Shown here one piece after another: positions 27,201 through 64,000 of a stretch of 64,000 nt of DNA. Below the pieces are notes generated by a model. It ran no database searches. It saw only the letters and a list, made by a program, of their open reading frames with translations, and was not told the DNA's origin. The stretch's first letter is position 1; each line of letters begins with the position of its first letter. Both the position numbers and the translations under genes were made by a program. Source of the stretch: a virus; the IMG/VR virus record IMGVR_UViG_3300032213_001070, positions 20,215-84,214 of that record; one strand, given 5' to 3'.

Positions 27201-29506
27201 TAAAATCTCTTGTAAGAGGTGGATTGTCTCCAACACCACAGAACCTAGCTATCTTGTTACATATGTTGCAATTAGAAAAGCAATTCAAAGGAATGGATGA
27301 GCTAGAAATGGCATTTAGTCCGGATACTGGATTACTTGATACTACATTACAAGTTAAAAAAAGAGATCAAGCTTTGAAATTATTCTCAGAAGGTTCTAAG
27401 ATTGATAAAGATTTCTTAAATAGATTAAGATATGATTCCATTCTATCATCATTCTACAAGAGTGATATGATAATGGATTTAGTAACACCATTATTCTCAT
27501 TAAGATTGAATGACCAAATATCAAACTTTATTGAGAAGAAGATTAATCTAAACAAAGATATCATAGCTCAAAAGTATGGCCCAGGAATTAAAGGTCAAGA
27601 GAGATTTATTAACATGTACAATAATGCAGTAGTAAATTACATCTTCCAAAACACTATGTCTAATTATCCTGATGAGTCTGGACAACCAGTTCTTATTCCA
27701 GATACAATACATACCTTTCCTGTTACTCAAGTAGAAAAAGGTCCTGCGGTTATATTAAATGAAAAAGGCTTTAGAGTAAATTTTAAAAAAGCTCAGGAAG
27801 ATTATAAAAACAAAATCTTCTTAACTACTAACAATACAGATGAGAGCTATGCTAAAACTGGTCAGGATGCATTTACTCCACGGGAGAATCCTTTCCCAAC
27901 ATTCTCAAGCTACTTAAAGTTCATTACAGAAAAAGAATATTTAAGCAGTATATACCCTGATCAGACTGATGTCTTTTTAACTCAGACAGCACTTATGAAT
28001 AACTTTAACCGTGCTTTTATTATGGGTACAACAAAGTATTCATATACTAATATGGTTATGGATATCATTAGTGAGTTTGAAGATCAAAACATAAAAGAAA
28101 ACTATCCGGTATTAGCTCAGCTAGCACCAGCTAAGTTTGTTAAAGATGTAAATGTTATTGAGTTAAATGATAAGGCAACAGCCAAAGGAGTTATTGCAGA
28201 AGATTATTATAAGAATCTAAAACAATTAGCGGATCCAACAGTAAGAAAAGTTACCTATACAGATAAGACTAAACAAAAACAAGATAACCAAAGAATAACT
28301 GATGTATTCAAGGACTTCTCACTGCTTATGTTTTATCAACATGGTACAGGATATTCTAGATTAGGTTTTGGAAAAGTATTAGATCCAGAATCTTTTGTAA
28401 AAAAAATGCAGTATGCTTCTAATGCTTTCTTGAATAACAATCTATCAGAAGAAACATTTGAAAGAATCTATAACAGATTCATTACTAAGTCACAGTTTAA
28501 AGATTATACTATTGACCCAAGTAATCCAGATGCTTTTGAATCTTCAGAAGATATACTAAGTGAATTCTCTGAAGAAGACTTGATAGAAATGGGATTACTA
28601 CAACCAGGACAAAAACCTACTCAACCATCTACTAGTATTAAACCTTCTGATTTTACTAATCATTCTGGTGGTGCATATGGAGGGGATACTTTCTGGGATA
28701 TTATTGGTAGAGAATTTGGAGTTACTAATCATAAACACTATAAAGATGCGGGTAATCCTAATTTATCTCAAAAATTAAGAAATGCAGGTGTTAAAGCTAC
28801 AATTCTTACTAAAGAACAGATGGATACTGCAAGAATTGAGGTGGAAAAATTACTTGGAGAAAAATATCCTGATACTTTACAAGGAAACTTACAAGTAAGA
28901 AATTATTATCAAGTAGCTAATGCAGATGCTGTATTTGCTGTTGCTGAAATAGATTCTGGTACAAAGCCTGGAGTTTTTGGTGGAACAAATACTGCTGTTC
29001 AATTAGGTATAAAACTAGGTAAACCTGTATATGTATTTGATTTAGATACCAAGAAATGGTATACACAAGATACAGAGTATCTTGAAACTGGTTATGATAA
29101 AACTAAACATGAATGGAATTACAATGGTTGGATAGAAATACCTACACCTACTCTTACTAAAAACTTTGCTGGTGTAGGATCAAGAGATATTGAATCTTAT
29201 AATGTACAAAAGGATGGTAAATGGGTGCCAAGAGATAAATACAAAGGTAAAGAAACTGAAGAAGCTGCTAAACAAGCTATTAGAGATGTATATACTAATA
29301 CATTTGCAACTCCTACCACTCAACCTACAGCTATTCAGACTGCTGCAGCAACACCGTTAGATAAAATAAATGAATTTTATAACAGTCTTACTCAGGAACA
29401 AAAAGATAAATTAGGTAACTTAGATGACTTGATTGCTGAGTATAATGATGTTCCGTTTGACTATCCGGTAGAAGATTATATTGAAAGTATTAAATGTAAG
29501 TTATAA
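18293..29506 (+). CDS. Virion-packaged two-barrel RNA polymerase, 3737 aa, with zincin-like and C-terminal SLOG-like domains
   Basis: RIPT...AGSDFDVDK (DFDVD at 25865-25879) matches the crAss-like RNAP catalytic loop; HEAFH at 20894-20908 with a downstream E(LLAE); HSGGAYGGD...GGT...FAGVGSR near the C-terminus. Confidence 0.85.
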   Translation: MITCPITRQPLEDFYKYVYRAINDKLKDNKTFDVNQFMEDLFKKSSEKSDPETAAKWLQSTPRVINLIVTKSFSDKIPLVKGLDGIYGLMTDFSKPDGEGLKNVLAKYVKKQDVKDLKPVIAHQLSLEFSTEEDEPEGEDIPKNSPSVTARLKSTIPFSGTLPSFTPVDPKQKSDTYIEKLDKPRAQILTNLTRLANAFNSTDPFSDFVYQNKKIRIKAVNLYAFSQQNFNDLDPTTQEEIRLSGVMVAIGNAQANVTQADKRVLLVVTDDSGQNLYFDEEGNITNKGNGKLLYQFMRDVRNTAKGYVVTDIYGNEEQLMPISEYVAKNYNSEIDGDLNTFTEKVKDQREKELKRLFELREKALGSEVMLEFEGLTEGVSSEVTATRLPLSDFLKIPGSTKANLKTIRTLKKAEGKFFKGYAVINLNGTEFQVRRSSMPDSVADQIAAVMFDPNIPFETKKDFYSQFIPEDSDTKLAYTMRKHEIIPDMEKKSFRIKLYDQVGEKEGFMTKPTHDFKISEASLKKASEESLANGRKLLSDIFKTGRSNGKATYMSYKSDLLNSEDYLVYDTQTKQIDVANYINFLSGLDGYVMLVDGDPGFYNKTLLFNEPTELSKDLKEQPEEEEDWFDQQIREAREFAEKQKALENASKTPVEIEFDFIIDRALSPEYKAQLEQQGVKAKSNNYYYAASLIQSINTDRRYSREVAEQLRDMLSGYIGALSDAQIKTINSAINAAFPQLSTPVQNAVDIIQKTIEPEMPDPTTGIIEPGSNLTQDEQDTLDEFGLFRAGYIADEIGAKDLKNVLNWWNKTKIGKELQKHIKLEHAYNLANSDVFAKFVVSGATLTNPDIKAQIQINPNKGTLVDIYHEAFHAFTQLYLTRQEKYNLYDEVKNYTDANGKEPYKNFSYKDIDELLAEDFRTYMKTNYIKKGSPVRNRLFRKILNFIRALFGKKPINPTEVVTETMNVPAVRELFENLNYSSNKKSFVRKYQANISNVDWFELDRGISKLNRPTDTALSTQDSQLISDSMDMIISDIVDDYYKARLKTGKVTKSGTIGLLLDPEKRHGTYKIIEKRLQKKLDEFKTKLHSQPGIAPFSEIKNLEDIQENAVAVLKSAKGEDKYVFLKSQIDGFDNLNPEIKKGTRIKGESWRGIKIVGDFYSHKSIKKDKTPVSILVVSSLEDARQQFENYVAGGAKEYTDFEEKDVPDYMLSAEQELLLDNVRILQAALDNYGDPEWELKGIPPTGTIAFHLQNSDFELSKTKYELDKSLLNEENEEEDDQEKDQSRDSETPFGGEASNKKSLLQLASKEVIYILKSLSKVNREGEVSYNRLGFKERADFRKVWNIVTKTIGGLRDRVDAYDKLMEEAKNFSEIAQLIETKLPDPKAISSIFEQGVSNSFWQTFAKPSVKYWQFTVFPQYESVTNELTGESENIITSYESEVTQSSIEVDSTVRKFEALFKSSLANDYIEKNSANQSQLKLANLVKGFEDKSNPGQLDKNRSFEFAAALGIKLDDLPVIRKSLETKSDYYGLPYIYDIAKDFLAIQSAEKKIGQQEEFLNKFISNPIGTLRGEIPKGVLKTFKKEVTEKNILKRLAELQSQYGYDSANPGVLLPDGNRVFENVNHSEVTVTVDALNRVTKLSDLWESDEFGYMDHLKPGKSFFTLRSKVFGALFDMSKNTSEENLFDKKSNRSLELIQTAGTQIADVEGVNTSDLDKAGKFMQEFHTFLLNGVAEFIRHAEKKSAFGIRQVGGKQKVIVNGITNGVDQSLYIDMNKFIKPGETQLSPGEIVAVGGYFLDYIAVEFDRIRYFKQNPNVLETIKGYNREIKDEQGNVIARAGELFTVFDNILRDKTKKDLYKLTSDPALDLPTYVRNNQELFLKIQTDITDYFNEKLESLTKEYVDNLNFMDEKLYEKAGILEKDRKGGLATEPLVKAYLYNSWIHKFEMFNIFNGDASQFNHDKQEVQKRAPGSTSDGDAFLNDKYMHKFINSVLNNKTYAKALAKELGRDDLDKFVSNGKLNTGVIADAERKSVYLDEMLGAWEEKYRKDLTPIIKNKTELEKAISKKLAKDAKAYKEMKESDGAAFVTFDAYRILKIQGNSWAPAQEELYQKIIAGEEVDPLKVKEFFSIYKLHYYGAIANSPIAATAMHKFAVAPIIPSLATKGTQLYNLHVKMLENNLQYVTFGSGSKVSTLTTTGSFDNIFADANQKAVSMDAPIKTNQIHIEYLKDVTKVATKLKKEISYPTQKRVLLLDGLFNVGEAINKTSGEIASNYKAAVDNYTEVLTLDLLNKIGYEFDKNTGSYVGKLDKFIELIRDELGAKEVPDHLIKLLDTTLAGNLTMDFSIHPEADTLEKVIVNRIQKSVITQKTKGESMVQAPSTFYNGVWDTAFERDEAIKKNDELIKKFLGSNVLPFYRTGFDEKGNRIATQAMKVAIPFNGDFLNLLNLKHPDGEPIGNRDRLNDLIKNDAWLNENKDLITIAGPRIPTDAANTMEFAEVWHFIDPAQGNTVIVPTEIVAKAGSDFDVDKIYFMMPNINSKGELVKAPAESMEDLKALVDKSNKASKKERKEKGLMNPQALIDQYKKAAQNKLIESTKAILSLPDNYASLTKPNNTYLVEDEVEFYDTYARGYNNKLNAHQEGVRMNGKDEVMSPSRIFDEDYNLSVHESNLSGSLPLGIMAKKNKVHSLFKSIGALMPKSYRATVWNDETKRYDELEAEYDVVINMKHNKTRNAKGQEVVSLSNENNVDGEKIGDIFSHGLQGLLDRAKNPFPFKLQIVKEALSTINHLIEAGVSVPETFAFVNNPWIVKYIEYQMRFGGSTSKFMSIPILKHQVKAAAMKQTIDDMISAGGTSMKKFISELVNIANQKRLADTVTMLKKQEKSKKYNYMLEGIDVPFTATVEDMVFKKGFQLNKIALLKEVDPTKGFDKQKVVFSKSKSITNNDNFYYAAQAAWQKTFGNTYANESELKSLVRGGLSPTPQNLAILLHMLQLEKQFKGMDELEMAFSPDTGLLDTTLQVKKRDQALKLFSEGSKIDKDFLNRLRYDSILSSFYKSDMIMDLVTPLFSLRLNDQISNFIEKKINLNKDIIAQKYGPGIKGQERFINMYNNAVVNYIFQNTMSNYPDESGQPVLIPDTIHTFPVTQVEKGPAVILNEKGFRVNFKKAQEDYKNKIFLTTNNTDESYAKTGQDAFTPRENPFPTFSSYLKFITEKEYLSSIYPDQTDVFLTQTALMNNFNRAFIMGTTKYSYTNMVMDIISEFEDQNIKENYPVLAQLAPAKFVKDVNVIELNDKATAKGVIAEDYYKNLKQLADPTVRKVTYTDKTKQKQDNQRITDVFKDFSLLMFYQHGTGYSRLGFGKVLDPESFVKKMQYASNAFLNNNLSEETFERIYNRFITKSQFKDYTIDPSNPDAFESSEDILSEFSEEDLIEMGLLQPGQKPTQPSTSIKPSDFTNHSGGAYGGDTFWDIIGREFGVTNHKHYKDAGNPNLSQKLRNAGVKATILTKEQMDTARIEVEKLLGEKYPDTLQGNLQVRNYYQVANADAVFAVAEIDSGTKPGVFGGTNTAVQLGIKLGKPVYVFDLDTKKWYTQDTEYLETGYDKTKHEWNYNGWIEIPTPTLTKNFAGVGSRDIESYNVQKDGKWVPRDKYKGKETEEAAKQAIRDVYTNTFATPTTQPTAIQTAAATPLDKINEFYNSLTQEQKDKLGNLDDLIAEYNDVPFDYPVEDYIESIKCKL

Positions 29507-38300: not shown

Positions 38301-38320
38301 TTTTTAGTTGGTTTTAATTT

Positions 38321-38893
38321 TTACAAAGATAATCTAGAATTATTAATATTCTCAAAATTTGCAACAGCAGTTAGTAACATTTCTTTATCTAGATTTGGTT
38401 TGTCACATAGTTCCCCTACTTCTTCTAATAGTTTTTGAGGTACATCAAGTAACTCAGCATATCTCTTAAAGAACTTTTCAGGAAACATATAGCTTGTTAC
38501 ATAAATATAATTACCACTATGTTTGTCAAAAAAATTAACTATTTTACGCTTTATATCATCACTTATTTTACTATATCTACCATTTATCATATGGTCCCAA
38601 TCATTACCTAAATCAACAAAATCAAATACAAATACAGCTTGATTATCATGTAGTTTGCTATAATTGCAAAGTCTACTATGTTTTATTAAAACATCATTTT
38701 CAAAATCTGCATAATCATCATCTGTTGTATCATACACACAAATAAGTTTTTTATCCTCAGAGGAGTACATCTCTGCCCAAGCAAAATAAGTTTCTACTGG
38801 AACAATCTGTGTACCTCTTTTAATGTCTAAGAGCGGATAAACAAATATCTTAGACTTTTGGAAATACTTTCTATAAAGCGCATTAATTACCAT
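38321..38893 (-). CDS. Hypothetical protein, 190 aa
   Basis: ORF in operon, 5 nt after the nuclease gene. Confidence 0.7.
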   Translation of the reverse strand: MVINALYRKYFQKSKIFVYPLLDIKRGTQIVPVETYFAWAEMYSSEDKKLICVYDTTDDDYADFENDVLIKHSRLCNYSKLHDNQAVFVFDFVDLGNDWDHMINGRYSKISDDIKRKIVNFFDKHSGNYIYVTSYMFPEKFFKRYAELLDVPQKLLEEVGELCDKPNLDKEMLLTAVANFENINNSRLSL

Positions 38894-42420: not shown

Positions 42421-43428
42421 TTATAATTCTAATTTAATTACTTTACCTGGTAAATCATTATTCATATAGGACTGCTCTGATAAAACCCATAGGATGTTCC
42501 CTTTTGGTTTTACAGAATAACCACATTCACCATCAGTAAAATACACCAGGCTAGTATATTTCTTTAGGTTTTCATTATAATATTCCAGGACGGGATCAAA
42601 CTCAGTCCCACCTCTTCCGTGTATATTCATTTCATGCTTTCCTGTATAAGGTTTGATAGAATGTATTTTAGTATCACATTGTACTATAGTAATATCAACA
42701 CCTGCCTTATAGATATGATGAATCTCATTCATAAACTCTTTGAGCTCATCATCACTTACAGAACCTGAAGTATCTATAGCTAAAAGCATATGTTGTTTCA
42801 TCTTAATCTTGAGACCCGGATTGTCACTAAATCTTCTATTCTCTTTCCGCCTGATTTTCTTGGTAAATACTTTTGTACTGATTCCAGTAAACCTACGGAT
42901 ATACCCTCTCCAGTCAAACTTAGGTGGTACAATCTCCTCAACTACAATAACTCCTTCTATCTCACCAGGAACAGTACCACGTTTCTTAACAGTTTGCTCC
43001 TTAGCATCACTAAGCACTTTCTGCAATTGCTTTTCAATTAACTTTTGCTCAGCTTCAGTAAGATTATCAAACTCTTCCCAGGTACCATGATCAGGAACAT
43101 TACCCATATCAATATTGTCAAGAAGATTGTCCATTGCTTGATTACCGCAAGTACCATTCTTCTCTTTCTCATCTTTAAACTCTTTAAGCTTGTCATAGTA
43201 ATATCTACAACCTGCTCTAAGTTCAAGATTCATATCAGCATAGTCTTCTATAAAAATACCTCTACCAGGAGCATTCTTAAGTATCTCAGCTATTTCTTCA
43301 GGACTAGCTCCTGTTTCTATAGCTGCAGACATTTCAAGTTTTAGTTTTTCATTCAATGCTTCATATTCTTCTTTAGAATATTCTCCGCCCGGCAACCAAG
43401 ACTTTTCAATGTACTGATTGATTTCCAT
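42421..43428 (-). CDS. Exon 2 of a DUF2201-type metallopeptidase-VWA protein (spliced product about 434 aa)
   Basis: Begins MEINQYI; MIDAS DTSGS, CDT, GRGGT and FTDG motifs. Confidence 0.85.
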   Translation of the reverse strand: MEINQYIEKSWLPGGEYSKEEYEALNEKLKLEMSAAIETGASPEEIAEILKNAPGRGIFIEDYADMNLELRAGCRYYYDKLKEFKDEKEKNGTCGNQAMDNLLDNIDMGNVPDHGTWEEFDNLTEAEQKLIEKQLQKVLSDAKEQTVKKRGTVPGEIEGVIVVEEIVPPKFDWRGYIRRFTGISTKVFTKKIRRKENRRFSDNPGLKIKMKQHMLLAIDTSGSVSDDELKEFMNEIHHIYKAGVDITIVQCDTKIHSIKPYTGKHEMNIHGRGGTEFDPVLEYYNENLKKYTSLVYFTDGECGYSVKPKGNILWVLSEQSYMNNDLPGKVIKLEL

Positions 43429-43737
43429 CATTTGTGTTAGCTGCATGTTTCCCTGCAGATCGGACTATACCTTCACCCCAGTAGGGTGGCTTATTGTAGT
43501 CTCTGAACCTCTTTCTTTAAAATAGTTTTCAAATTTATTCTTCTTTCTGTCTAACTTTTTAAAGAAATTTGGCTGCGGATCACCCATTTGGACATCTCTA
43601 TCTTTTTTACTATACCTGAATAATTAGTTCAGCCACATACTACCTCACGGTGCATGCTTAGTAGATAGAGCTTTAGGATTTTCCCGTCAATTTAAAGCTT
43701 TCTCTTACACATTACTGTGCAACGGGACTAGGAATTA
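43429..43737 (-). mobile_element. Group I intron, 309 nt, no intact homing endonuclease
   Basis: Minus strand P AAATTGACGGGAA, Q GATCCGCAGCC, R GGTTCAGAGACTACA, S AAGGTATAGTCC. P1 is GGAU|UA/UAGUCC with a U.G pair; terminal G. Splicing joins ANVAMD|MEINQ. Confidence 0.92.
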
Positions 43738-48521: not shown

Positions 48522-49337
48522 CATTATCTTCAAATTAATTTGCAAAATTAACCCCGTTTATTAAACTGCTTAACATTTCTGCTAAGATGAGACTATATCT
48601 TCTTCCTTGTTAGGAAGGCTTCCTTTTCCACTACCATTAGCTTGTAGTGTACTCCCCTTTGGGATAGTCGTTGAACCTTTTATAAATAAGTTTTCATATA
48701 CTTGCTTTATCCAAAGTACCCATTCATCATATGAATAGTTCTTTTTAGCAAAATTACATTTTTGACAGCAAGGAACACAATTATTTAGCGTATAACCAAT
48801 GCTATTGTCCTTTCTATCTATACCATTATATACAAACTCAGATGTATCTTTAAATTTTCTTTTATGTCCTTTAAATGTATTTGCTGGAACAGCATTACAA
48901 TAATGACAGTTTTGAACTACAAGTTCCTTAAATTCATCTAAATTAATATCAAAAGTATAATTTCTAAGTAAAGCTTGCTTTTGGTAATTCATGTAAACTT
49001 GATAAAACATTGCTGTAAAAAGAGGTTTAGAACTTCTTTCAACTATTTGTTCAATATTATAACAACCACAAGATTTACTTGCCCCAGATTTAACTGAATA
49101 ACCAGTAACTTTTTTAATGCTTCCACAATCACATTGGCAAATATATCTTTTTGTAGATTTTTCCCAATGAAGCACTGCCCATCTATTAATTTTTGTCCCG
49201 GGTTCTAAACTTAATTTACTCATATTTACTTATTTATAACTTGGCTGCTGATTGTCTTCACCTTTCAGTGGTCAGAGTTCCCAGCAATTAAAAAGCTTTT
49301 TCAATCTATATTACTATAGAAAGTGGCTACTAATTTA
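48522..49337 (-). mobile_element. Group I intron, 816 nt, encoding an HNH homing endonuclease
   Basis: P AATTGCTGGGAA, Q AATCAGCAGCC, R GGTTCAACGACTA, S AAGATATAGTCT. P1 is UGGU|UA/UAGCCA with a U.G pair; terminal G. Confidence 0.92.
48582..49223 (-). CDS. Intron-encoded HNH homing endonuclease
   Basis: CQCDCG, SCGC, CHYC...GIDRKDN..GY...NCVPCC..CN; the 3' end overlaps intron R/S elements. Confidence 0.85.
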   Translation of the reverse strand: MSKLSLEPGTKINRWAVLHWEKSTKRYICQCDCGSIKKVTGYSVKSGASKSCGCYNIEQIVERSSKPLFTAMFYQVYMNYQKQALLRNYTFDINLDEFKELVVQNCHYCNAVPANTFKGHKRKFKDTSEFVYNGIDRKDNSIGYTLNNCVPCCQKCNFAKKNYSYDEWVLWIKQVYENLFIKGSTTIPKGSTLQANGSGKGSLPNKEEDIVSS

Positions 49338-55034: not shown

Positions 55035-55300
55035 GCTCTTGCAAATTGAAATAATGCTACTAATTTACTATACTCATCTAACACCCATTCTGGAGTAAAT
55101 ACAGCTTCATGACCTTTAAGAAAAACAATAACATTATCAATTACAGACATTTTTATATCCGCATACCAGTTATTGGTATAAAGTAATACAAATTCAACAC
55201 TAATATCTTTATACATATATTTATGATGATTATTACTGTTTCTATAAAAACCATACTTCACAAGCTTCTTACCAATTAATTCTGTATCTCTAAGTGTCAT
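55031..55300 (-). CDS. Hypothetical protein, tandem paralog 2
   Basis: MTLRDTE...KYGF. Confidence 0.6.
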   Translation of the reverse strand: MTLRDTELIGKKLVKYGFYRNSNNHHKYMYKDISVEFVLLYTNNWYADIKMSVIDNVIVFLKGHEAVFTPEWVLDEYSKLVALFQFARA

Positions 55301-55587
55301 TATTCTATAAATTTATGAAATGCTATTAAGTTTTTACACCACTGATGCGCAGGACCTAAGATATTTTTATGCCCGGTAACAAAATCTTTTGTAAGTTTTG
55401 TATTTGTTCCAGATAAAGCAGCTTCAACTATATAATAATCAAAACTCTTAGATGAATGTATTGTTACTTCAACAGTCCAGCTATTACCAAATTTATTGTA
55501 ATAAAAAACATTGTCTTTACCCTTTACTGTAAAATAACCTAAAGCTTTAGCCTGTTCTCTACATCTTTCTATATCTCTAAGTTTCAT
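55300..55587 (-). CDS. Hypothetical protein, tandem paralog 1
   Basis: MKLRDIE...LGYF. Confidence 0.6.
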   Translation of the reverse strand: MKLRDIERCREQAKALGYFTVKGKDNVFYYNKFGNSWTVEVTIHSSKSFDYYIVEAALSGTNTKLTKDFVTGHKNILGPAHQWCKNLIAFHKFIE

Positions 55588-55592
55588 ACATA

Positions 55593-55808
55593 TTATTCTG
55601 ATTTAAAGGTTTCGTTGTAGTATTGTTCTGCTGATTTATATGTGGTTATTTTACCTCGTTCATCTCCAAAATTAATAGCATTAATTATCTGCTCTTTCTC
55701 CATTTCTTTGGCTTTATCCCAACATTCTGAATTATGTTTAAAGTGCTCTTCTGTCCAAGGTTCAGATATTAAATTATCTTCTAACCATTCTATTGCTGTC
55801 TGTTCCAT
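55593..55808 (-). CDS. MxQTA...AKEMEKEQI...TFKSE family protein, 71 aa
   Basis: Paralog of 61481-61684; ends in the AACCTTTAAAT core. Confidence 0.7.
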   Translation of the reverse strand: MEQTAIEWLEDNLISEPWTEEHFKHNSECWDKAKEMEKEQIINAINFGDERGKITTYKSAEQYYNETFKSE

Positions 55809-57533: not shown

Positions 57534-57803
57534 TTAAATTAATTCTAAATCTGCTTCTTGAAAATGTTCTGCTTCTATTGCTTCTAAAGTAACATAAGGT
57601 GCAAATCTATCCGCACTGTAATACTCATAAGGAAATGATTGTTCTGATAGTTGTACTTCTTTTAATCTATAACCATATCTATTTTGTTGTAGACTCATTC
57701 TGGCTACTTCAACTACAGTATATACCTTACCTTCTTCTAACCATTCATATGGTGATATTCTTTTAGGCTTGTTACTGGCATTAATACATATTACTTTTAA
57801 CAT
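57534..57803 (-). CDS. Hypothetical protein, 89 aa
   Basis: ORF. Confidence 0.65.
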   Translation of the reverse strand: MLKVICINASNKPKRISPYEWLEEGKVYTVVEVARMSLQQNRYGYRLKEVQLSEQSFPYEYYSADRFAPYVTLEAIEAEHFQEADLELI

Positions 57804-58516
57804 GACATAAATTTATATCTTTTTTTAAAATACTTATTTGTATCTATATACTTTTTATAATTTGTTGGTCTTCCTGTAACTTTAAAAGCTGAATCAGTTG
57901 ATAAATATGTTGTTACAGTATCTAAAAGTATATCATGTACTTTTAACATGATTTTGTTTCCTGCAAGCAAATTAACATTTATTTTTAAAGGATAATTTTT
58001 TTCATTGTATCTCCAAAAATAATTATTACTTGTTCTTGATAAATCTACTAAAGCATGTCTTAGTGTACTTGATCCACAATTAAAATATTTTGCAGCATCA
58101 AGTATAGAATCCCACTTTTTTATAAAATTACCTTCTAAATCATACTGCAATATAGACTTAGATAATTTTTTTGCAAGAATTTTATACTTTTCATGACTGT
58201 GTTTAAAACCTAATGTACCTTCACCACCTAATGTAGCATTAGTTAAATCAAAACCCCATTGTTTAAATTGACCTATCCAATAAATTTCAAGATCACAAGC
58301 TTCTTCTAAAGAATTTGCTCTATCTAATTCTTTAATGATAGGTTTTTGATTTTGCATTTTTAATTTTTTAATCCAGTTAGTTTTATGAGAATTACAATCT
58401 TTTGACTTTGTGCAGTGCCCAGATAATCTTACACTTAATTTTACAGAAGTTAAACCAATGTATCTTATGTCTAAACTTATAGGATCTTGTAATGTATATA
58501 TTATGAATTTTTTCAT
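57797..58516 (-). CDS. Free-standing GIY-YIG homing endonuclease with NUMOD-type DNA-binding domain
   Basis: IIYTL...RYIGLT...R..H...E..WI...LTN...GGEG; ILQYDLEGNFIKKWDS. Confidence 0.8.
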   Translation of the reverse strand: MKKFIIYTLQDPISLDIRYIGLTSVKLSVRLSGHCTKSKDCNSHKTNWIKKLKMQNQKPIIKELDRANSLEEACDLEIYWIGQFKQWGFDLTNATLGGEGTLGFKHSHEKYKILAKKLSKSILQYDLEGNFIKKWDSILDAAKYFNCGSSTLRHALVDLSRTSNNYFWRYNEKNYPLKINVNLLAGNKIMLKVHDILLDTVTTYLSTDSAFKVTGRPTNYKKYIDTNKYFKKRYKFMSC

Positions 58517-58519
58517 ATT

Positions 58520-58527
58520 CAAATATA
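58520..58527 (-). promoter_or_regulatory. Bacteroidota-type -7 box TATATTTG directly upstream of the GIY-YIG gene
   Basis: Exact TAnnTTTG match 3 nt before the ATG. Confidence 0.45.
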
Positions 58528-58810: not shown

Positions 58811-59908
58811 TTAAACTGTCACATTGAAATTTTTCCACATAATTTTAGTCTGGTCAAATCCTTCCAATGCATCTTTTACCCATTTCTCATCTACTGTATC
58901 CATATAACATAGTATGTGGACAATAGCTTTATCATCTGGGTTTAATCTTAATAACCTACCTATTCTCTGAGCGGCCTTTCTCTCATTACCATATGCATGC
59001 ATAATAATACCTTGTTTTAAATTAGGTATGTTTACACCCTCATTCAACTGTAGAACAGTAGAAAGTTTGGTAATCTCTCCATCTTTGAACTTAAGCAAGT
59101 TCTCTTCTGATTTTGGATTGTTGCTATGATAGCTATGATCACATAACTTATCAGCTTGAGCCTGAGTATTAGCAAATAGAATACACTTACTTTCTATGCT
59201 GTCAAATAATAACTTAGCATACTTTTCTTTAGTAGGATATTCCATAAGAGCTTTCATTCTCATAACTCTAAGCATATGTACACTTCCAGAACCTACATCT
59301 AGTCTTCTAGACCAATACACATAATTAGATTCTTCATCTGTCATATATGTTTTATTCTTCATAGTGACTTGATAGTTCTTTTCTTTGCTTAATCTTAGCT
59401 CATGCACAACAATCTTATAATCATTCAGTATTCCATTTTCTATGGCATCATCTGCCTTAAATGTAAATACTACAGGACAAAACTCTTGTACTAACTTACC
59501 TTTCTCTGAATAGTCTCTCTTTGGTGGAGTACCGGTCAGCCCAAGTATCTTGCCTTTGAATAACTGCAAAAATCCCCGGTGACTGTCTAGTAAACTATGC
59601 ATCTCATCTAAATACACAACATCATAATCATTAGGATCATGTTTGTTTAAGCTTAGATAAGTAGTAAAAACTATTCTACCTAGAAGATGATGCTTATCAA
59701 ACTTAACAGCATCATCTTTCCAGGATTGAAATATAGCTTTCTTAGGTGCCACAACAAGACATTTCATCAGTGGTGTAGTGTTTCTATCCATATGAGTCAG
59801 GCCAACAAGGGTCTTACCGACCCCTGTGCCTAAGACTACGGAAGCCCGCTGCTTACCATCAGTAGCAGCTAAAGCTTCCATTTGTATGTCTTGTCTGTCT
59901 TTTGTCAT
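58811..59908 (-). CDS. Superfamily 2 helicase (DExH, ResIII/UvsW-like)
   Basis: GTGVGKT, DEMH, LTGT, EGVNIP, QRIGR. Confidence 0.9.
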   Translation of the reverse strand: MTKDRQDIQMEALAATDGKQRASVVLGTGVGKTLVGLTHMDRNTTPLMKCLVVAPKKAIFQSWKDDAVKFDKHHLLGRIVFTTYLSLNKHDPNDYDVVYLDEMHSLLDSHRGFLQLFKGKILGLTGTPPKRDYSEKGKLVQEFCPVVFTFKADDAIENGILNDYKIVVHELRLSKEKNYQVTMKNKTYMTDEESNYVYWSRRLDVGSGSVHMLRVMRMKALMEYPTKEKYAKLLFDSIESKCILFANTQAQADKLCDHSYHSNNPKSEENLLKFKDGEITKLSTVLQLNEGVNIPNLKQGIIMHAYGNERKAAQRIGRLLRLNPDDKAIVHILCYMDTVDEKWVKDALEGFDQTKIMWKNFNVTV

Positions 59909-60648
59909 TTTGGTAAATTAAATATTTTCTTTCTAATGTAATTACCTGTCTCATCACCAGTAGACATAAGCTTAACTGTTTTTAGATGTTTATCTAAGTT
60001 AGCCATGACTTTGGTATGATTGTAATTACCATAAGCTTGCATAAATGCTGTTAAAAATTGAAATTTAACTGCTCTATCTGACATACCAATCTTTAGGAAG
60101 ATATCATTAAATGCTTTACACATTGCTTCAGCATTTGGATTAGTAATAGTAAAATTACCTGTTTTGATAATTGAAGTACCATGCTTAAGTCCTGGGCTAT
60201 TTACTCCAAGCATAGCAAGCATAGTAACTTCTATATCATACATATTCTTCCACTTGAACAGTTTCATATAATCTGGACGGATCATTTTCCATGCATTAAC
60301 ATAGTTCATTAAATCCCAAGACTTAGATGAGTTATTTAAGTATGCCATCTTTTCAATTAAATCTTCTTCAGATTCAATTTCAATTTCTACATAAGGAATC
60401 ATTCTATCTTCTCTTTCCAATGCTGTAGCAAGATGCTGACCATCAATTATATAGGTTTTATCTTCACCTTCTATAATATTAGTAGTACAGGCTATAACAC
60501 ATCTTAATACACCCATTTTCCGGATACTGGTAATCATCTTTTGAACATGTTTGCTATCAATACCTCTGTTCATAGGTAAAACAGAGAATGTTGAATAGTT
60601 CATTGTGTGTTTAATTTTAAGTTCTTTTCCAATCATTTTCATAATCAT
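59905..60648 (-). CDS. ParB/Srx-like domain protein
   Basis: NR.ID..HV...IIDGQH...LN. Confidence 0.65.
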   Translation of the reverse strand: MIMKMIGKELKIKHTMNYSTFSVLPMNRGIDSKHVQKMITSIRKMGVLRCVIACTTNIIEGEDKTYIIDGQHLATALEREDRMIPYVEIEIESEEDLIEKMAYLNNSSKSWDLMNYVNAWKMIRPDYMKLFKWKNMYDIEVTMLAMLGVNSPGLKHGTSIIKTGNFTITNPNAEAMCKAFNDIFLKIGMSDRAVKFQFLTAFMQAYGNYNHTKVMANLDKHLKTVKLMSTGDETGNYIRKKIFNLPK

Positions 60649-60809: not shown

Positions 60810-60953
60810 TTAAAAATTTTTTATTAAGTTTTGTATTTTACCAAGAAATCCTTTATAAATTATACCATCTTGATAATCTTTAACTAAATACATACCAATC
60901 ATACTAACAATAAATCCAATAGACCACAATAAATAACAAATTAATATTAACAT
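60810..60953 (-). CDS. Small membrane protein, 47 aa
   Basis: Translated by hand. Confidence 0.5.
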   Translation of the reverse strand: MLILICYLLWSIGFIVSMIGMYLVKDYQDGIIYKGFLGKIQNLIKNF

Positions 60954-60956
60954 AAT

Positions 60957-61130
60957 TTAAGAATTAAAAGTAAAGAATTTTCTCTTAGCAACTTCAATCT
61001 GTTTACGGAAATAATGTCCCTTTAGATTGTTGCTTTCTAATTTACATAGTGCTAACTTATCTGCACAGAACAGTATGTACTTTAAAATACGTACTTTTTT
61101 TATGTCTTGTGAATTATATATATTTTTCAT
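60957..61130 (-). CDS. Hypothetical protein, 57 aa, ending TFNS
   Basis: Translated by hand. Confidence 0.5.
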   Translation of the reverse strand: MKNIYNSQDIKKVRILKYILFCADKLALCKLESNNLKGHYFRKQIEVAKRKFFTFNS

Positions 61131-61134
61131 TTAT

Positions 61135-61479
61135 CTATTTTATTTGGTTAACTAAAAATTGCAATAAATAAGCATAAGCTTCATCTGATTCTTTAGACAA
61201 CGGTATCCCTATTTTATTAAATATAAAACATACAGCATGAAAACATTCATGAGCAATTAAACCAGTTTCATCAAGATTTTTTAATCTTATTATAGTAAAT
61301 CCAGTATCATGAAATAATGTTCTCCCAGTTACAATTTTATCATCCCAATCAGAAAAATAATAATCAAATTCTTTTTTAGTCATTTTGTGTTTAAGTTCTT
61401 TATAGAGAACTTTATTACTTTGTCCTACTGAAACTACAACTGTTTTACAATAAATTTCTAATTCTATTATTTTAAACAT
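61135..61479 (-). CDS. Small zincin-like (HExxH) protein
   Basis: LIAHECFHAV...DEAYAYL; ATG 9 nt after a core repeat. Confidence 0.65.
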   Translation of the reverse strand: MFKIIELEIYCKTVVVSVGQSNKVLYKELKHKMTKKEFDYYFSDWDDKIVTGRTLFHDTGFTIIRLKNLDETGLIAHECFHAVCFIFNKIGIPLSKESDEAYAYLLQFLVNQIK

Positions 61480-61480
61480 A

Positions 61481-61684
61481 TTACTCTGATTTAAATGTTG
61501 GGTCATAATTTGCAATACCTCTTAGGTAAGCATTTTCAATCTGCTCTTTCTCCATTGCTTTGGCTTGTTCAATTAACTTTACTCTTTTGATACCATACTC
61601 TACTTGATTAATTTTATTTGCTAAAAAGTCAAGAGTTAATTTTACTTCTTGCTCCGCATAAAATTCTAATGCTGTCTGTTTCAT
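61481..61684 (-). CDS. MxQTA...AKAMEKEQI...TFKSE family protein, 67 aa
   Basis: Paralog of 55593-55808. Confidence 0.7.
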   Translation of the reverse strand: MKQTALEFYAEQEVKLTLDFLANKINQVEYGIKRVKLIEQAKAMEKEQIENAYLRGIANYDPTFKSE

Positions 61685-61685
61685 T

Positions 61686-61895
61686 CTATTCTGATTTAAA
61701 GGTTAATAATTTTTCACATTTTTCATAGTCCTCAATCCTTAAAAAATATTTGAGGGTATCTTCAACAATAGAAGAATAATATTCTTTTTGTATATCTGGA
61801 GATATTTCACAATTTAATATTTGTTCATAGTAAATATTATAAAGCATATTAGTTATTTCTTCTGCAAACTTTCTAAGTTTAGTATCTAAAATCAT
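61686..61895 (-). CDS. Hypothetical protein, 69 aa, with a UVR-like EDYEKC motif, ending TFKSE
   Basis: ORF bounded by core repeats. Confidence 0.6.
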   Translation of the reverse strand: MILDTKLRKFAEEITNMLYNIYYEQILNCEISPDIQKEYYSSIVEDTLKYFLRIEDYEKCEKLLTFKSE

Positions 61896-61924
61896 CTTAC
61901 TCTGATTTAAAGGTTAATTCCATA

Positions 61925-62695
61925 CTATTTCTTTTTAAATTGTTCTAATACTTCTTTTGAAGTATAATCTGTGTCTGGTTGTGAGTGCCATTTTAAACCT
62001 GTATCATAAAAGTTTTCTCTTACATACTCCAGTAATGCAACTACTTCTTCCTCACTATACATTCTTTCAGCTTGCCATTTAGCACCTATTTTAGCATAAG
62101 TTAAAGGTGATGAATATTTATTTTTATCTAAATGTATTCTTACAGCTTCTTCAAGTGTTTCTTGTTTAGACATCATTGTAGAATTAAATATTCTTTCTTC
62201 TTTCTTTGCTGCTTCAGTATAAGTAAGTGTTTCTTGTTTAGGTTCTTCTTTTGGAATGATGATTTTGTAATAACTACTATGCTCAATGCACTCATCTCCT
62301 AATCCCATATCAACTTCAAAATCTACTACTTTAGTTTCAACACTTTCACAGCTTGGATTCTTTACAAACCATTCTAAAAAGTTATCATCAATAGCTTGTA
62401 CACCATCTGCAATTAAGTCTTGGTCTGTTGTTAGGATGATTTTACTTCTTGTGTTTGATTTTAAGTTATCAGAATCACAAGGATTTTCTAATTCATAACC
62501 CATTCCAAAATCATGTATAACAGCATCACCCTCTTTAATTTCTGAATCAGAAGTGATGTAGATGTGTTGATTTGTATAAGAATCATTTTTACTTCTAATT
62601 GAACTTTGTTCAAAATTAGCAATTACAAAATTTTTATTATTTCCAAGTCTTATTCTACTTGGTTTTTCTGTTGGTAATAAATGTATGTTTTTCAT
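61925..62695 (-). CDS. MKNIHLLPTEKPSR family mosaic protein, copy A
   Basis: Conserved blocks shared with 63166-63906. Confidence 0.75.
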   Translation of the reverse strand: MKNIHLLPTEKPSRIRLGNNKNFVIANFEQSSIRSKNDSYTNQHIYITSDSEIKEGDAVIHDFGMGYELENPCDSDNLKSNTRSKIILTTDQDLIADGVQAIDDNFLEWFVKNPSCESVETKVVDFEVDMGLGDECIEHSSYYKIIIPKEEPKQETLTYTEAAKKEERIFNSTMMSKQETLEEAVRIHLDKNKYSSPLTYAKIGAKWQAERMYSEEEVVALLEYVRENFYDTGLKWHSQPDTDYTSKEVLEQFKKK

Positions 62696-62705
62696 ATTGT
62701 TTAAT

Positions 62706-62909
62706 TTAAAGGTTAATTATTTCTTGTTTAATGACTATTGAGTATCTATTTATTTCTCCATACCTTGCCCAAAAAGTATTATCTTGTGGAAAAGTAAGTT
62801 GTTCTGCATCTATTGTGAACTTATGTTGATACCAATAACCTTTTCTTAATTTTCTATACCACTTATATCTACCTAAATAAGTGTCAACCCAAGTTTGTTT
62901 TTGTTTCAT
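62706..62909 (-). CDS. Hypothetical protein, 67 aa
   Basis: ORF bounded by core repeats. Confidence 0.6.
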   Translation of the reverse strand: MKQKQTWVDTYLGRYKWYRKLRKGYWYQHKFTIDAEQLTFPQDNTFWARYGEINRYSIVIKQEIINL

Positions 62910-62931
62910 TCTATTCTGATTTAAAGGTTAA

Positions 62932-63144
62932 TTATTGCATTTTTTCATGACGTTCTTTGGTTTTTACCCACTCCTTAAATTCTTTTCGGTAAAATTGAAA
63001 TTCAATAATTATCCAAATGTTTTTGAATCTTTTTCCTAAGTGATTCATAACCCATTCAAAAAATTTTATGAATAAAAATAAAAATGCGATTAAGGATAAA
63101 ATCCAAAAAGTTGAAAATCCAACATAGTAATAAAAATTATACAT
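62932..63144 (-). CDS. Small membrane protein, 70 aa
   Basis: N-terminal hydrophobic helix; bounded by core repeats. Confidence 0.6.
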   Translation of the reverse strand: MYNFYYYVGFSTFWILSLIAFLFLFIKFFEWVMNHLGKRFKNIWIIIEFQFYRKEFKEWVKTKERHEKMQ

Positions 63145-63165
63145 TCTATTCTGATTTAAAGGTTA

Positions 63166-63906
63166 CTACTTCTTTTTAAATTGTTCTAACCATTCTTTAG
63201 TTGAAAGTAAATCATGATTAGTATATCTCCATGTTAATAATAAATCTAAAACTTCTTCTTCACTATACATTCTTTCAGACTGCCATTTAACACCTAGATT
63301 AAACATATCTAATGGATTAAGATTTGAACTAAACTCTAATCCTTTGGACTTTAATTCTTTACTAAATGCTTCTTCAAGTGTTTCTTGTTTAGGTTCTTCT
63401 AAAGATTTAAAAAACACATCATCAGGTAATGCTTTAGGTAATTCAAATGGATTAGGTTCTTCTTGTGGAATGATGATTTTGTAATACCCATAAGGCACAT
63501 CATTAGCAATAAAAATTTGACTTGGAGTTTTTATGTAATTAACCTCAACTTCCTCACAACTTGGGTTCTTAACAAACCATTCTAAGAACTCATCCTCAAT
63601 AGCTTGAACACCATCTGCAATTAAGTCTTGGTCTGTTGTTAGGATGATTTTCTTCCAATTCTTAAATGTTCCTGAATATTGGGATTTTTCAACTCTGTTT
63701 AATTCAATATCACAAATCCAATCTCCTTCTTTAATTTCTGAATCATCAGTGATGTAGATGTGTCTTTGTCCACTCAAAAGACCATTGTTGCATTTAGACT
63801 CTTCTTGATTGAGTATTAACTTATAAGAAATACCTTCTTCAGATTGAACTTTTGAATAATGTAACCTACTTGGTTTTTCTGTTGGTAATAAATGTATGTT
63901 TTTCAT
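63166..63906 (-). CDS. MKNIHLLPTEKPSR family mosaic protein, copy B (likely start 63906)
   Basis: Same leader and N-terminus as copy A. Confidence 0.75.
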   Translation of the reverse strand: MKNIHLLPTEKPSRLHYSKVQSEEGISYKLILNQEESKCNNGLLSGQRHIYITDDSEIKEGDWICDIELNRVEKSQYSGTFKNWKKIILTTDQDLIADGVQAIEDEFLEWFVKNPSCEEVEVNYIKTPSQIFIANDVPYGYYKIIIPQEEPNPFELPKALPDDVFFKSLEEPKQETLEEAFSKELKSKGLEFSSNLNPLDMFNLGVKWQSERMYSEEEVLDLLLTWRYTNHDLLSTKEWLEQFKKK

Positions 63907-63923
63907 ATTGTTTAATTTAAAGG

Positions 63924-64000
63924 TTAATTCCATTCAGCATACTTAAATTTTAAGAACTTATGTTGTCTTTTATTATTTATATATGCTTGTATTGTACTTC
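63924..64000 (-). CDS. 3' end of a gene entering from beyond the window (...STIQAYINNKRQHKFLKFKYAEWN*)
   Basis: Open frame whose stop overlaps the last core repeat. Confidence 0.45.
   Translation of the reverse strand, partial: STIQAYINNKRQHKFLKFKYAEWN

Follow-up and report, generated by a model that had tools for sequence, protein, structure and literature searches.

At one end of the 64-kb stretch of viral DNA analysed here (the window, part of a record of 84,214 bp), a variable array of small genes lies between a GIY-YIG-like endonuclease gene, which is complete in the relative L037 and encodes 233 aa there, and a ParB-like gene (Table 1). The original prediction placed the core AACCTTTAAAT ahead of seven consecutive genes of this array (61135-63935), and this was confirmed on the minus strand at the same positions: six copies are exact (61694, 61905, 62704, 62919, 63154 and 63915) and the one at 61489 has one mismatch, reading AACATTTAAAT. 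An additional exact core, absent from that prediction, was found at 55601-55611 ahead of a gene at 55300-55587, which begins at the second ATG (55587); upstream of it is a 71-aa member of the MKTAVEW family ending in ...EQYYNETFKSE* (55593-55808). The window thus has seven exact cores on a single strand, whereas 100 dinucleotide-preserving shuffles of the window averaged 0.31 and never exceeded 2. A scan of the whole record yielded the same seven exact cores and none on the plus strand.

Table 1. Features of the array, its junctions and its anchors
Feature	Position	Strand	Role or basis
GIY-YIG-like endonuclease gene, 3' end, cut by contig end	63924..64000	-	conserved left anchor of variable array
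Junction 1, after GIY-YIG-like stop: TAACCTTTAAAT + TAAACAAT + ATG	63904..63926	-	sequence
Cassette, paralog A, 246 aa from ATG 63906 (255 aa if from 63933)	63166..63906	-	
Junction 2: TAACCTTTAAATCAGAATAGAATG	63142..63165	-	sequence
Cassette, 70-aa hydrophobic ORFan, no family match	62932..63144	-	
Junction 3: TAACCTTTAAATCAGAATAGAATG	62907..62930	-	sequence
Cassette, 67-aa ORF ending ...QEIINL*, stop is second stop of next block	62706..62909	-	
Junction 4: TAACCTTTAAAT + TAAACAAT + ATG	62693..62715	-	sequence
Cassette, paralog B, 256 aa	61925..62695	-	
Junction 5 (TAACCTTTAAATCAGAGTAAGATG), with mini-ORF MELTFKSE*	61893..61923	-	sequence
Cassette, 69-aa ORF ending ...LLTFKSE*	61686..61895	-	
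Junction 6: TAACCTTTAAATCAGAATAGAATG	61682..61705	-	sequence
Cassette, 67-aa member of large MK(Q)TAVEW...YYNETFKSE mini-gene family	61481..61684	-	
Junction 7, weakened copy: CAACATTTAAATCAGAGTAATATG	61477..61500	-	sequence
Cassette, 114-aa HExxH protein, phrog_1365	61135..61479	-	
Possible decayed junction TTAACCAAATAAAATAGATAAATG, ahead of 57-aa gene	61128..61151	-	judged by likeness
ParB-like gene	59905..60648	-	conserved right anchor of variable array
Junction 8, isolated: AAACCTTTAAATCAGAATAATATG	55589..55612	-	sequence

The conserved unit is a block of 23-24 nt with sharp edges, (T)AACCTTTAAAT-CAGAATARR-ATG. Direct reading of the junctions bore out the two predicted spacer types, a 9-nt spacer (CAGARTARn) before the ATG in five array copies and in the copy at 55601, and an 8-nt spacer (TAAACAAT) in two array copies. 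Left and right flanks do assort independently, as had been proposed: the left contexts ATGGAATT (63925 and 61915) and ATAATT (62929 and 62714) are each paired with both right-hand types. The translations also agreed with the claim that unrelated proteins end in TFKSE (61481-61684 and 61686-61895), and with the presence of the mini-ORF MELTFKSE* (61923-61897).

The cargo had been described as small and heterogeneous, including a zincin and a pair of paralogs. The paralogs are present; the supposed zincin is the HExxH protein, which belongs to a family of unknown function. Paralog A has 64 related loci in IMG/VR, the majority of which have no motif in front. A second GIY-YIG-like gene was found at 57797-58522, and HNH and endonuclease VII-like genes also occur in the record.

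Distribution of the block among phages and hosts

In IMG/VR, the exact 16-mer was detected in at least 119 stretches on at least 117 contigs. Among the matches listed, at least 66 contigs had two or more copies and at least 31 had three or more, the extended motif did not occur on both strands of any contig, and 189 of its 206 copies had an ATG within 8 nt. The usual setting is a small same-strand array in which the block stands ahead of very diverse ORFans. The downstream cargo amounted to 273 ORFs with a median of 67 aa (124 clusters, 97 singletons), and its largest family, with 39 members, was that of the MKTAVEW...YYNETFKSE mini-genes. Some of the carrier contigs have a virion RNA polymerase homologue and some do not. 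Six whole records were counted (the present record and five large contigs), with 1-8 copies in each. The original prediction spoke of a phage system; the block is not private to the present crAss-like phage and is found across more than one phage type, on no fewer than 117 viral contigs.

When compared with one genome each of 185,579 species, the 23-mer gave 10 matches. Only one true chromosomal locus was among them, with orthologues in three Flavobacterium species, and the others were phage-like MAG contigs. The 23-nt block is practically absent from the host genome, and its sequence was not found in any paper of the literature searched.

Stop codons and translation starts at the block

A logo of 214 copies with distinct flanks on both sides showed AACC conserved at 89-95%, ATA at 89-93% and ATG at 85-87%, with purines at positions 14-15 and nothing conserved upstream of -5. 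The block is nearly invariant at more than 200 junctions with unrelated flanks, and it always points the same way as the following gene. Each of its three frames is closed by a stop codon, and all three stops are in use by upstream genes, whose ORFs end at +16 (TFKSE*) in 103 copies (15 families), at +6 (NL*) in 48 copies (26 families) and at -1 (TAA) in 35 copies (24 families).

Measurements in F. johnsoniae identified A at -3, -6, -12 and -13 as positive determinants of the translation start (PMC6847099). The block has A at -3, -6 and -11 to -13, matching a Shine-Dalgarno-free Bacteroidota start, and 73 motif-less genes of the phage have the same profile in a weaker form (A 0.60-0.64 at -13 to -11 and 0.67 at -3, T at -16/-15). 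Six of the seven junctions folded no better than shuffled sequence (z 0.0 to +2.0), and the best duplex with Flavobacterium 16S rRNA equalled the shuffle mean, whether the whole rRNA or its 3' 60 nt was used. Like the Bacteroidota translation initiation region (PMC6847099), the block combines A at -3, -6, -12 and -13, an A-rich stretch from -14 to -11, low structure and no Shine-Dalgarno sequence; the host pattern, however, is a statistical tendency, whereas the block is a fixed 23-nt word in which C, G, T and three stops are also fixed.

The stops in three frames and the conserved ATG support the view, already put forward in the original prediction, that the site is a real junction element which would supply both a stop codon and the next translation start. 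Some observations count against a role in translation. The block and its ATG also precede a tRNA-like cassette followed by a T-run, where a translation start would be useless, and the F. johnsoniae rules need only a few A positions and low structure, which leaves near-invariant C, G and T over. With only 1-8 copies in each of the six whole records, the block is not the general start signal of these phages.

Exchange of small genes at the block

Segments of at least 90% identity ended at core junctions in 54 of 71 encounters, compared with 226 of 668 at other junctions, and when the upstream gene was held similar, the downstream gene differed in 32 of 39 pairs at cores and in 734 of 1216 pairs at other small-gene junctions; both counts are pseudo-replicated, since related contigs were entered as pairs, and core junctions lie in generally variable regions. 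Relative to the block, the shared segments begin between -4 and 0 and run out between +17 and +29. The same single cassette, with 96-100% identity, can turn up in different contigs amid unrelated neighbours, and the homology is then bounded by the block. In one example, three contigs carry a 39-aa cassette at 97-100% identity, flanked by three unrelated neighbours on the left and three on the right.

Similar changes were seen in the present array. The left flank of junction 1 is 98-100% identical in L037 and L172, and L172 switches gene right after the core, so that its right partner is unlike that in the window and L037; L172 has about two small genes between the GIY-YIG-like and ParB-like anchors. 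The 67-aa gene at 61481-61684 has three different left partners: its 5' end is 98% identical in L082 and L037, with a different upstream neighbour in each. Gene order differs as well, the 69-aa ORF (61686-61895) being located after the HExxH gene in L037 and before it in the window. A comparison with public runs, which used assembled contigs, revealed a lake-metagenome contig with another left neighbour joined exactly at 62929. Gene order and content thus vary among relatives with breaks at the core, and the proposal that the genes are cassettes bounded by it held, as homology starts and ends at the block. The paralogs are 100% identical over 64 nt on the minus strand (62655..62718 and 63866-63929), a stretch that spans the junction and the first 41 nt of both genes; beyond it they are 83-91% alike, in patches. 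This identity points to gene conversion at the junction in the recent past.

Heavy shuffling (60-66%) was also seen at small-gene junctions lacking the core, and the site therefore favours exchange and is not required for it. The block is best read as a probable favoured crossover point for whole small genes, and comparison shows that cassettes are exchanged at it, since it recurs at many junctions of many co-occurring phages. Most likely, genes are swapped at the block by ordinary recombination and not by an integron-like enzyme. It is plausible that the phage's own annealing or recombination proteins carry out the exchange, the encoded exonuclease VIII-like and endonuclease VII-like proteins being candidates. 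It should be noted, however, that 23 nt is short for efficient homologous recombination.

Possible roles of the block and known systems

It is extremely improbable that the array is the integron-like system of the original prediction, in which a phage- or host-encoded site-specific recombinase would recognise the block and excise or insert cassettes. The array resembles integrons (attC/attI) in having rows of like-oriented promoterless genes that are delimited exactly by one short recurring site and whose content varies among relatives; moreover, the 19-nt ATGGAATTAACCTTTAAAT is common to junctions 5 and 1, so that the 2-kb stretch between them (63933 to 61915) is flanked by direct repeats. 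However, no tyrosine or serine recombinase (Phage_integrase or Resolvase domain, PF00589 and PF00239) was detected in the record, which is 71% complete (CheckV), or in three motif-bearing genomes that are 96-99% complete; one may still be supplied by a host or by the missing 29% of the record. The junctions have no local inverted repeats or hairpins, and six of seven fold no more stably than shuffles as single-stranded DNA. The earlier remark that neither an integrase nor an attC-like hairpin is visible was therefore correct, and the linked recombinase suggested at the same time was not found. Unlike integrons, the array showed no IntI-type recombinase and its site is not a folded imperfect palindrome; this site, which is spread over different phage types with few copies per whole record, itself encodes stop and start, in lytic phage genomes. 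What stands of the proposed system is that cassettes are bounded by a site; the strict analogy does not. Another possibility, which we regard as very unlikely, is that the block is bound or cleaved by a trans-acting factor, such as a translational repressor, an endoribonuclease (cf. RegA and RegB of T4) or an exchange-driving nuclease, e.g., GIY-YIG. All 23 positions are nearly invariant, beyond the needs of a bare translation start, the gene immediately ahead of the array is GIY-YIG-like here as well as in L037 and L172, the record has the further nuclease genes mentioned above (a second GIY-YIG-like gene, HNH and endonuclease VII-like), and the same question was raised for the SAS of mycobacteriophages (PMC3203893). 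However, the carriers are different phage types with no candidate common to all of them, and the endonuclease is tied to the block only by adjacency in one lineage.

A compact single-element promoter (T7-type or T4-late-type), giving a very short-leadered message per cassette with exchange as a by-product, is also unlikely. The block is sharply bounded at ~23 nt, the size of phage-RNAP promoters; the order of block, tRNA-like gene, T-run and next block resembles a self-contained transcription unit; and the early promoters of crAss-like virion RNA polymerases have not yet been identified (bioRxiv 10.1101/2020.03.07.982082). A contig from an RNA library ends inside junction 7 at 61494, where a DNA contig runs on, which is a weak hint, as an RNA start cannot be shown by a contig end. 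On the other hand, there is no conserved upstream element, and the primary Bacteroidota -7 element TAHHTTTG (located 4-5 nt ahead of the transcription start and accompanied by AT-rich tracts at -18 and -28) was unmatched: aligned on TTT, the block reads AACCTTTA, and the T at -12 and G at -5 of this host box, both nearly invariant, are wrong. Sigma-70-like sites are depleted (10 found, 19.8 expected). Carriers occur with and without a virion RNAP homologue, and of five records searched for a sigma-70 region 2 domain, a single one passed the family cut-off and a second gave a weak match below it, so that no shared polymerase or factor is in sight. Furthermore, the ATG belongs to the conserved block, and each of six whole records has only 1-8 clustered copies. 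No minus-strand terminator was found in 60900-64000. It is quite unlikely that the block is merely the conserved 3' end and start context of tandem MKTAVEW...YYNETFKSE mini-genes, with other genes inserted alongside and the junction functionless. This family owns 85 of the 103 TFKSE-type ends, forms arrays with exact 202-nt spacing and is also the largest one downstream (39 members). However, the upstream genes that end in the block come from at least 65 unrelated families and use all three frames, 50 of these families not reading it as TFKSE, and the block is kept where both neighbours are unrelated to the mini-genes. In the mini-genes themselves, serine is always TCA, F always TTT and K always AAA, whereas the tyrosine and asparagine codons just upstream vary synonymously, a count that is biased because the loci were found via the motif. 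Recognition of the block by dedicated machinery across unrelated Flavobacterium phages, either a targeted nuclease or annealing factor or a new single-element promoter, is likewise quite doubtful. In the first form, the adjacent GIY-YIG enzyme or the ubiquitous MKTAVEW mini-protein, for example, might actively target cassette transfer between co-infecting phages with no integrase; in the second, the early promoter long sought for crAss-like virion RNA polymerases might be among such promoters.

Phage accessory genes, including anti-defence and host-takeover genes, turn over very fast, and to our knowledge their movement is little understood outside T4-like coliphages. We consider it probable that small accessory (ORFan) genes in freshwater Flavobacterium/Bacteroidota phages have (T)AACCTTTAAAT-CAGAATARR-ATG as a portable stop-start junction. 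Judging from what is known of Bacteroidota translation, the mRNA of the block would give the downstream gene an idealised Shine-Dalgarno-free start (T-run at -16 to -14, A at -13 to -11, -6 and -3, no secondary structure), and the block would close any incoming frame; with stops in every frame and a start in one block, the gene after it would be expressed and the gene before it terminated. Exchange would occur by short-homology recombination or template switching through general phage or host functions, with no dedicated recombinase, and the uniformity of the block might be kept by selection for expression together with a greater mobility of consensus-bearing cassettes. One 23-nt word would then be stop signal, start signal and crossover point in uncultured lake phages of at least two types, including crAss-like ones, and it offers a testable case of short shared sequences channelling gene exchange between unrelated phages. 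It also provides a concrete marker by which the mobile ORFans of Bacteroidota phages, as a pool, can be searched for and, as what would be a natural plug-and-play expression adaptor in a phylum that does not use Shine-Dalgarno sequences, it could serve Flavobacterium/Bacteroides genetic tools.

Among known systems, the block is best read as a compact analogue of the PeSL (promoter-early stem-loop) cassettes of T4-type phages and the SAS (Start-Associated Sequences) of Cluster K mycobacteriophages. PeSLs are composites in which a sigma-70 promoter, AT-rich in its upstream part, is combined with a stem-loop terminator and a Shine-Dalgarno sequence, and PeSL mini-circles have been demonstrated (PMC2839356, PMC4122927). 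Both PeSL and block are short conserved motifs directly before ORFans in hyperplastic regions, extending from the stop codon of the preceding gene to the start of the following one; where relatives differ by insertion, deletion or replacement, the ends of the difference lie in the motif, and exchange proceeds, most probably for the block as well, via ordinary recombination between copies. The block differs in having 23 nt with no host-type promoter box, stem-loop or Shine-Dalgarno sequence, and in being the same letter for letter across phage types, whereas PeSLs occur within one phage family. SAS are 13 bp long with a Shine-Dalgarno core able to pair with 16S rRNA, and are present in one phage cluster only, where each genome has 11-19 copies; a proposed role in translation initiation is unproven, and they were not described as crossover points (PMC3203893). 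In contrast, the block pairs with 16S rRNA no better than chance, its host phylum ignores Shine-Dalgarno sequences, and it occurs in several phage types with cassette exchange seen at it. Otherwise the likeness to SAS is close: both are short asymmetric repeats in one orientation, a few nt before mostly ATG starts and sometimes with the upstream stop codon inside; they stand ahead of genes from different families, only in the non-structural half of the genome, and are practically absent from the host genome.

Stop-start blocks in the cassette array

The DNA belongs to a crAss-like phage with a host among the Bacteroidota; its record (84,214 bp, 33% G+C, completeness 71% by CheckV) has the window as its right-hand 64 kb. 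The plus strand carries the structural and giant genes, and the minus strand those for replication and accessory functions. A 3737-aa protein has, at residue 2525, the catalytic DFDVD motif known from crAss-type virion RNA polymerases. The adjoining 2050-aa protein has homologs in other large lake phage contigs, and no PDB homolog was found by sequence. When the helicase was used as a tblastn query, only distant crAss-like and Flavobacterium phage relatives were detected (FpV4-group Flavobacterium phages, Bacteroides crAss001-type phages and Cellulophaga phages, ~30% identity). The cassette array is the first part of a leftward gene block and reaches the contig end; thus, it may extend past this end. 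The early region has a GIY-YIG-like endonuclease gene on either side.

The original prediction placed an 11-mer core, AACCTTTAAAT, at gene junctions, and the window indeed has seven copies, all on the minus strand, where shuffled sequences give 0.31. The seven consecutive genes said to be headed by the core carry six copies and a one-mismatch copy (61489), between 63926 and 61477, and an additional, eighth copy was found at 55601. Every copy is followed by 8-9 nt and then ATG, the fixed distance that had been proposed, and the flank details, the TFKSE ends and the MELTFKSE mini-ORF with its stop were all correct as described. No known RNA families were detected at the junctions, and searches of the cassette proteins against Pfam, PHROGs and the ESM Atlas gave nothing informative.

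A logo of 214 copies, which had differing flanks on both sides, showed a sharp-edged block, (T)AACCTTTAAATCAGAATARRATG, and no conservation upstream of it. The block has a stop codon in every frame: one TAA makes use of the preceding T, a second TAA lies within CTTTAAAT, and a TAR stands in front of the ATG. All three are used by upstream ORFs: TFKSE ends occur in 103 copies (15 families), NL ends in 48 (26 families), and the first TAA is used in 35 (24 families). Downstream, 273 ORFs with a median of 67 aa formed 124 clusters, 97 of them singletons. The single large family is a mini-protein of roughly 70 aa (MKTAVEW...YYNETFKSE), for which no library gives a name.

Several cassettes with the block on either side are tRNA-like (L171, minus strand, from 1217; L068; L099; L110; L173, 9254-9350) and are laid out as block, ATGAARTA, tRNA-like gene, T-run and next block. 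ARAGORN called just one of them, the L173 form (Pro, agg, 97 nt), which is also a tRNA by Rfam (49.5 bits). The form in L171 and L068, called by neither program, has acceptor, D and T arms as in L173 and about 100 nt extra in the middle.

Features of the phage record (window positions unless stated otherwise)
Feature	Position	Strand	Remark
GIY-YIG-like gene	63924-64000	-	directly before cassette array; truncated by contig end; full 233-aa gene in relative L037
GIY-YIG-like gene	57797-58522	-	
Paralog pair	61925-62695 and 63166-63906		250-aa family
MKTAVEW...YYNETFKSE members	61481-61684 and 55593-55808		
HNH and endonuclease VII-like genes	42421-43446 and 48582-49223		HNH, endonuclease VII-like
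3737-aa protein	18293-29506	+	
Leader word TTAAAACCAAC(A/T)A	genome 486-517, 7981-8012 and 58515-58546		last = window 38301-38332, minus strand

Carriers of the block

In IMG/VR, at least 119 stretches (at least 117 contigs) contained an exact match to the 16-mer TAACCTTTAAATCAGA. Among the matches listed, 66 contigs had at least two core copies and 31 at least three, the extended motif never occurred on both strands of one contig, and ATG lay within 8 nt of 189 of 206 extended copies. Counted over whole records, this phage and five large contigs have only 1-8 copies each, tightly clustered. The carriers represent more than one phage lineage: several of nine large contigs tested encode homologs of the giant virion proteins of this phage, and its virion RNA polymerase had no match in four of the nine (223, 106, 80 and 91 kb). 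In the 223-kb contig, three junction copies at 71113, 71315 and 71517 are spaced by exactly 202 nt, a spacing that probably reflects mini-genes arrayed in tandem; the contig, from a jumbo phage, also encodes two sigma-70-type factors.

When one genome from each of 185,579 prokaryote species was searched, the full 23-mer had ten matches, which were phage-like contigs in freshwater Flavobacterium/Bacteroidota MAGs and one chromosomal locus. The latter is orthologous in Flavobacterium limi, F. pectinovorum and F. calami; here, the 23-mer precedes a 122-aa gene within a tandem row of paralogous genes (about 100-450 aa), directly upstream of a LytTR-type response regulator. The host may use the same junction here, or the locus may be an old insertion that came from a phage. 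The public runs that contained parts of the array were lake-water metagenomes. Neither the array nor a typical junction matched cultured phages (blastn against 50,697 phage records), and motif strings in a literature search matched unrelated papers only. Motif arrays were mildly enriched near contig ends (11 copies versus 7.2 expected within 300 nt), which was not used as evidence.

Exchange of cassettes at the block

It was also predicted that cassette content and order vary among relatives and that breakpoints fall at the core, and both expectations were supported. Between two conserved anchors of the variable region, a GIY-YIG-like gene and a ParB-like gene, about ten small genes are present in this phage and about two in its relative L172; another relative, L037, has a different gene set and order, with a 69-aa gene located after the HExxH gene rather than before it as in the window. 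The first left flank of the window is 98-100% identical in both, yet in L172 another gene directly follows the core. A 67-aa gene is 98% identical in L037 and at a further locus, L082, and has a different upstream neighbor in each.

Segments of at least 90% identity that reached a junction ended there in 54/71 core cases, compared with 226/668 other cases (all fetched loci), and when the upstream small gene was similar, the downstream gene differed in 32/39 core pairs versus 734/1216 other small-gene junctions; these counts treat related contigs as pairs, and core junctions sit in already variable regions. Core-less junctions were shuffled too. Shared segments started at -4 to 0 and ended at +17 to +29 of the block. 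In the clearest case (alignment A1), a 39-aa cassette between two blocks is 97-100% identical in three contigs, with three unrelated left neighbors and three unrelated right neighbors. In the window, the two paralogs are 100% identical over a 64-nt stretch that comprises the junction and their first 41 nt, and their remainder has diverged; this points to recent conversion at the junction.

Other orders of the cassettes were seen in contigs assembled from public runs, where the joints lay at 62929, 61684/61926, 63907/61925 and 63907/63167; the RNA-library run yielded scraps of the array only. A predicted empty site, combining the left flank of junction 1 with the right flank of junction 5, was absent from the fetched loci. 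Lake metagenomes contain the paralog family in great abundance (depth in thousands in two runs, X2 and X4), and the family was detected in at least 64 IMG/VR contigs, in most of which no junction block stands in front; L001, a contig of 106 kb without a virion RNA polymerase match, shares a 219-nt stretch with the paralogs at 94% identity.

Translation start, promoter and known systems

In F. johnsoniae, translation is initiated without Shine-Dalgarno pairing; an unstructured leader favors it, as does A at -3, -6, -12 and -13 (PMC6847099). Each of these positions, and -11 as well, is A in the block, and six of the seven junctions were no more stably folded than shuffled sequence. A weaker version of the same start profile is found in the 73 genes of this phage that lack the motif (A 0.60-0.64 at -13 to -11 and 0.67 at -3; T at -16/-15). 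Several results speak against a promoter. The block mismatches the host primary promoter element TAHHTTTG at two invariant positions, and a second promoter element is not conserved. Sigma-70-like sites are depleted, and the coding strand is without terminators. The carriers share no polymerase or sigma factor: a virion RNA polymerase homolog is present in some and absent from others, and one of five records had a sigma-70 region 2 domain that scored above the family cut-off. Nor did the block pair specially with 16S rRNA; for pairing of the TURBS or enhancer type, it was no better than shuffled sequence.

However, non-A positions are as invariant as A positions, the block including its ATG stands before a tRNA-like cassette ending in a T-run, and one RNA-library contig terminates inside the block, although this last point is weak. 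These observations would suit a promoter or the site of a trans-acting factor, and both are kept as live alternatives. Given the evidence against a promoter and the match to translation starts, we place a ready-made translation start, combined with a stop in all three frames, above a promoter. Overall, we favor, with moderate confidence, the view that the block is a genuine 23-nt stop-start junction, widespread and under selection, by which swappable ORFan cassettes of lake Flavobacterium phages are marked. Most likely, it serves these cassettes as a universal translation adaptor and as a favored crossover point, with exchange proceeding by ordinary recombination.

The proposal of an integron-like system held only in part, and in the strict sense the block arrays are not an integron. 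Neither this record (71% complete) nor three near-complete carriers yielded a tyrosine or serine recombinase, the site has no hairpin, and the block is spread over phage types with few copies per record counted whole. Instead, it is a very compact variant of a phage gene-shuffling element and not a new recombination system. The closest described systems are the promoter-early stem-loop (PeSL) cassettes of T4-type phages (PMC2839356, PMC4122927) and the start-associated sequences (SAS) of Cluster K mycobacteriophages (PMC3203893). PeSLs have the same role, the shuffling of ORFans, but are composed of a promoter, a terminator and a Shine-Dalgarno sequence. SAS share the placement and a proposed role in translation initiation, but contain a Shine-Dalgarno sequence, are restricted to one phage cluster and are not linked to exchange. 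This phage also has a second recurrent leader word, TTAAAACCAAC(A/T)A, found ~8-10 nt ahead of the start codons of three genes outside the cassettes.
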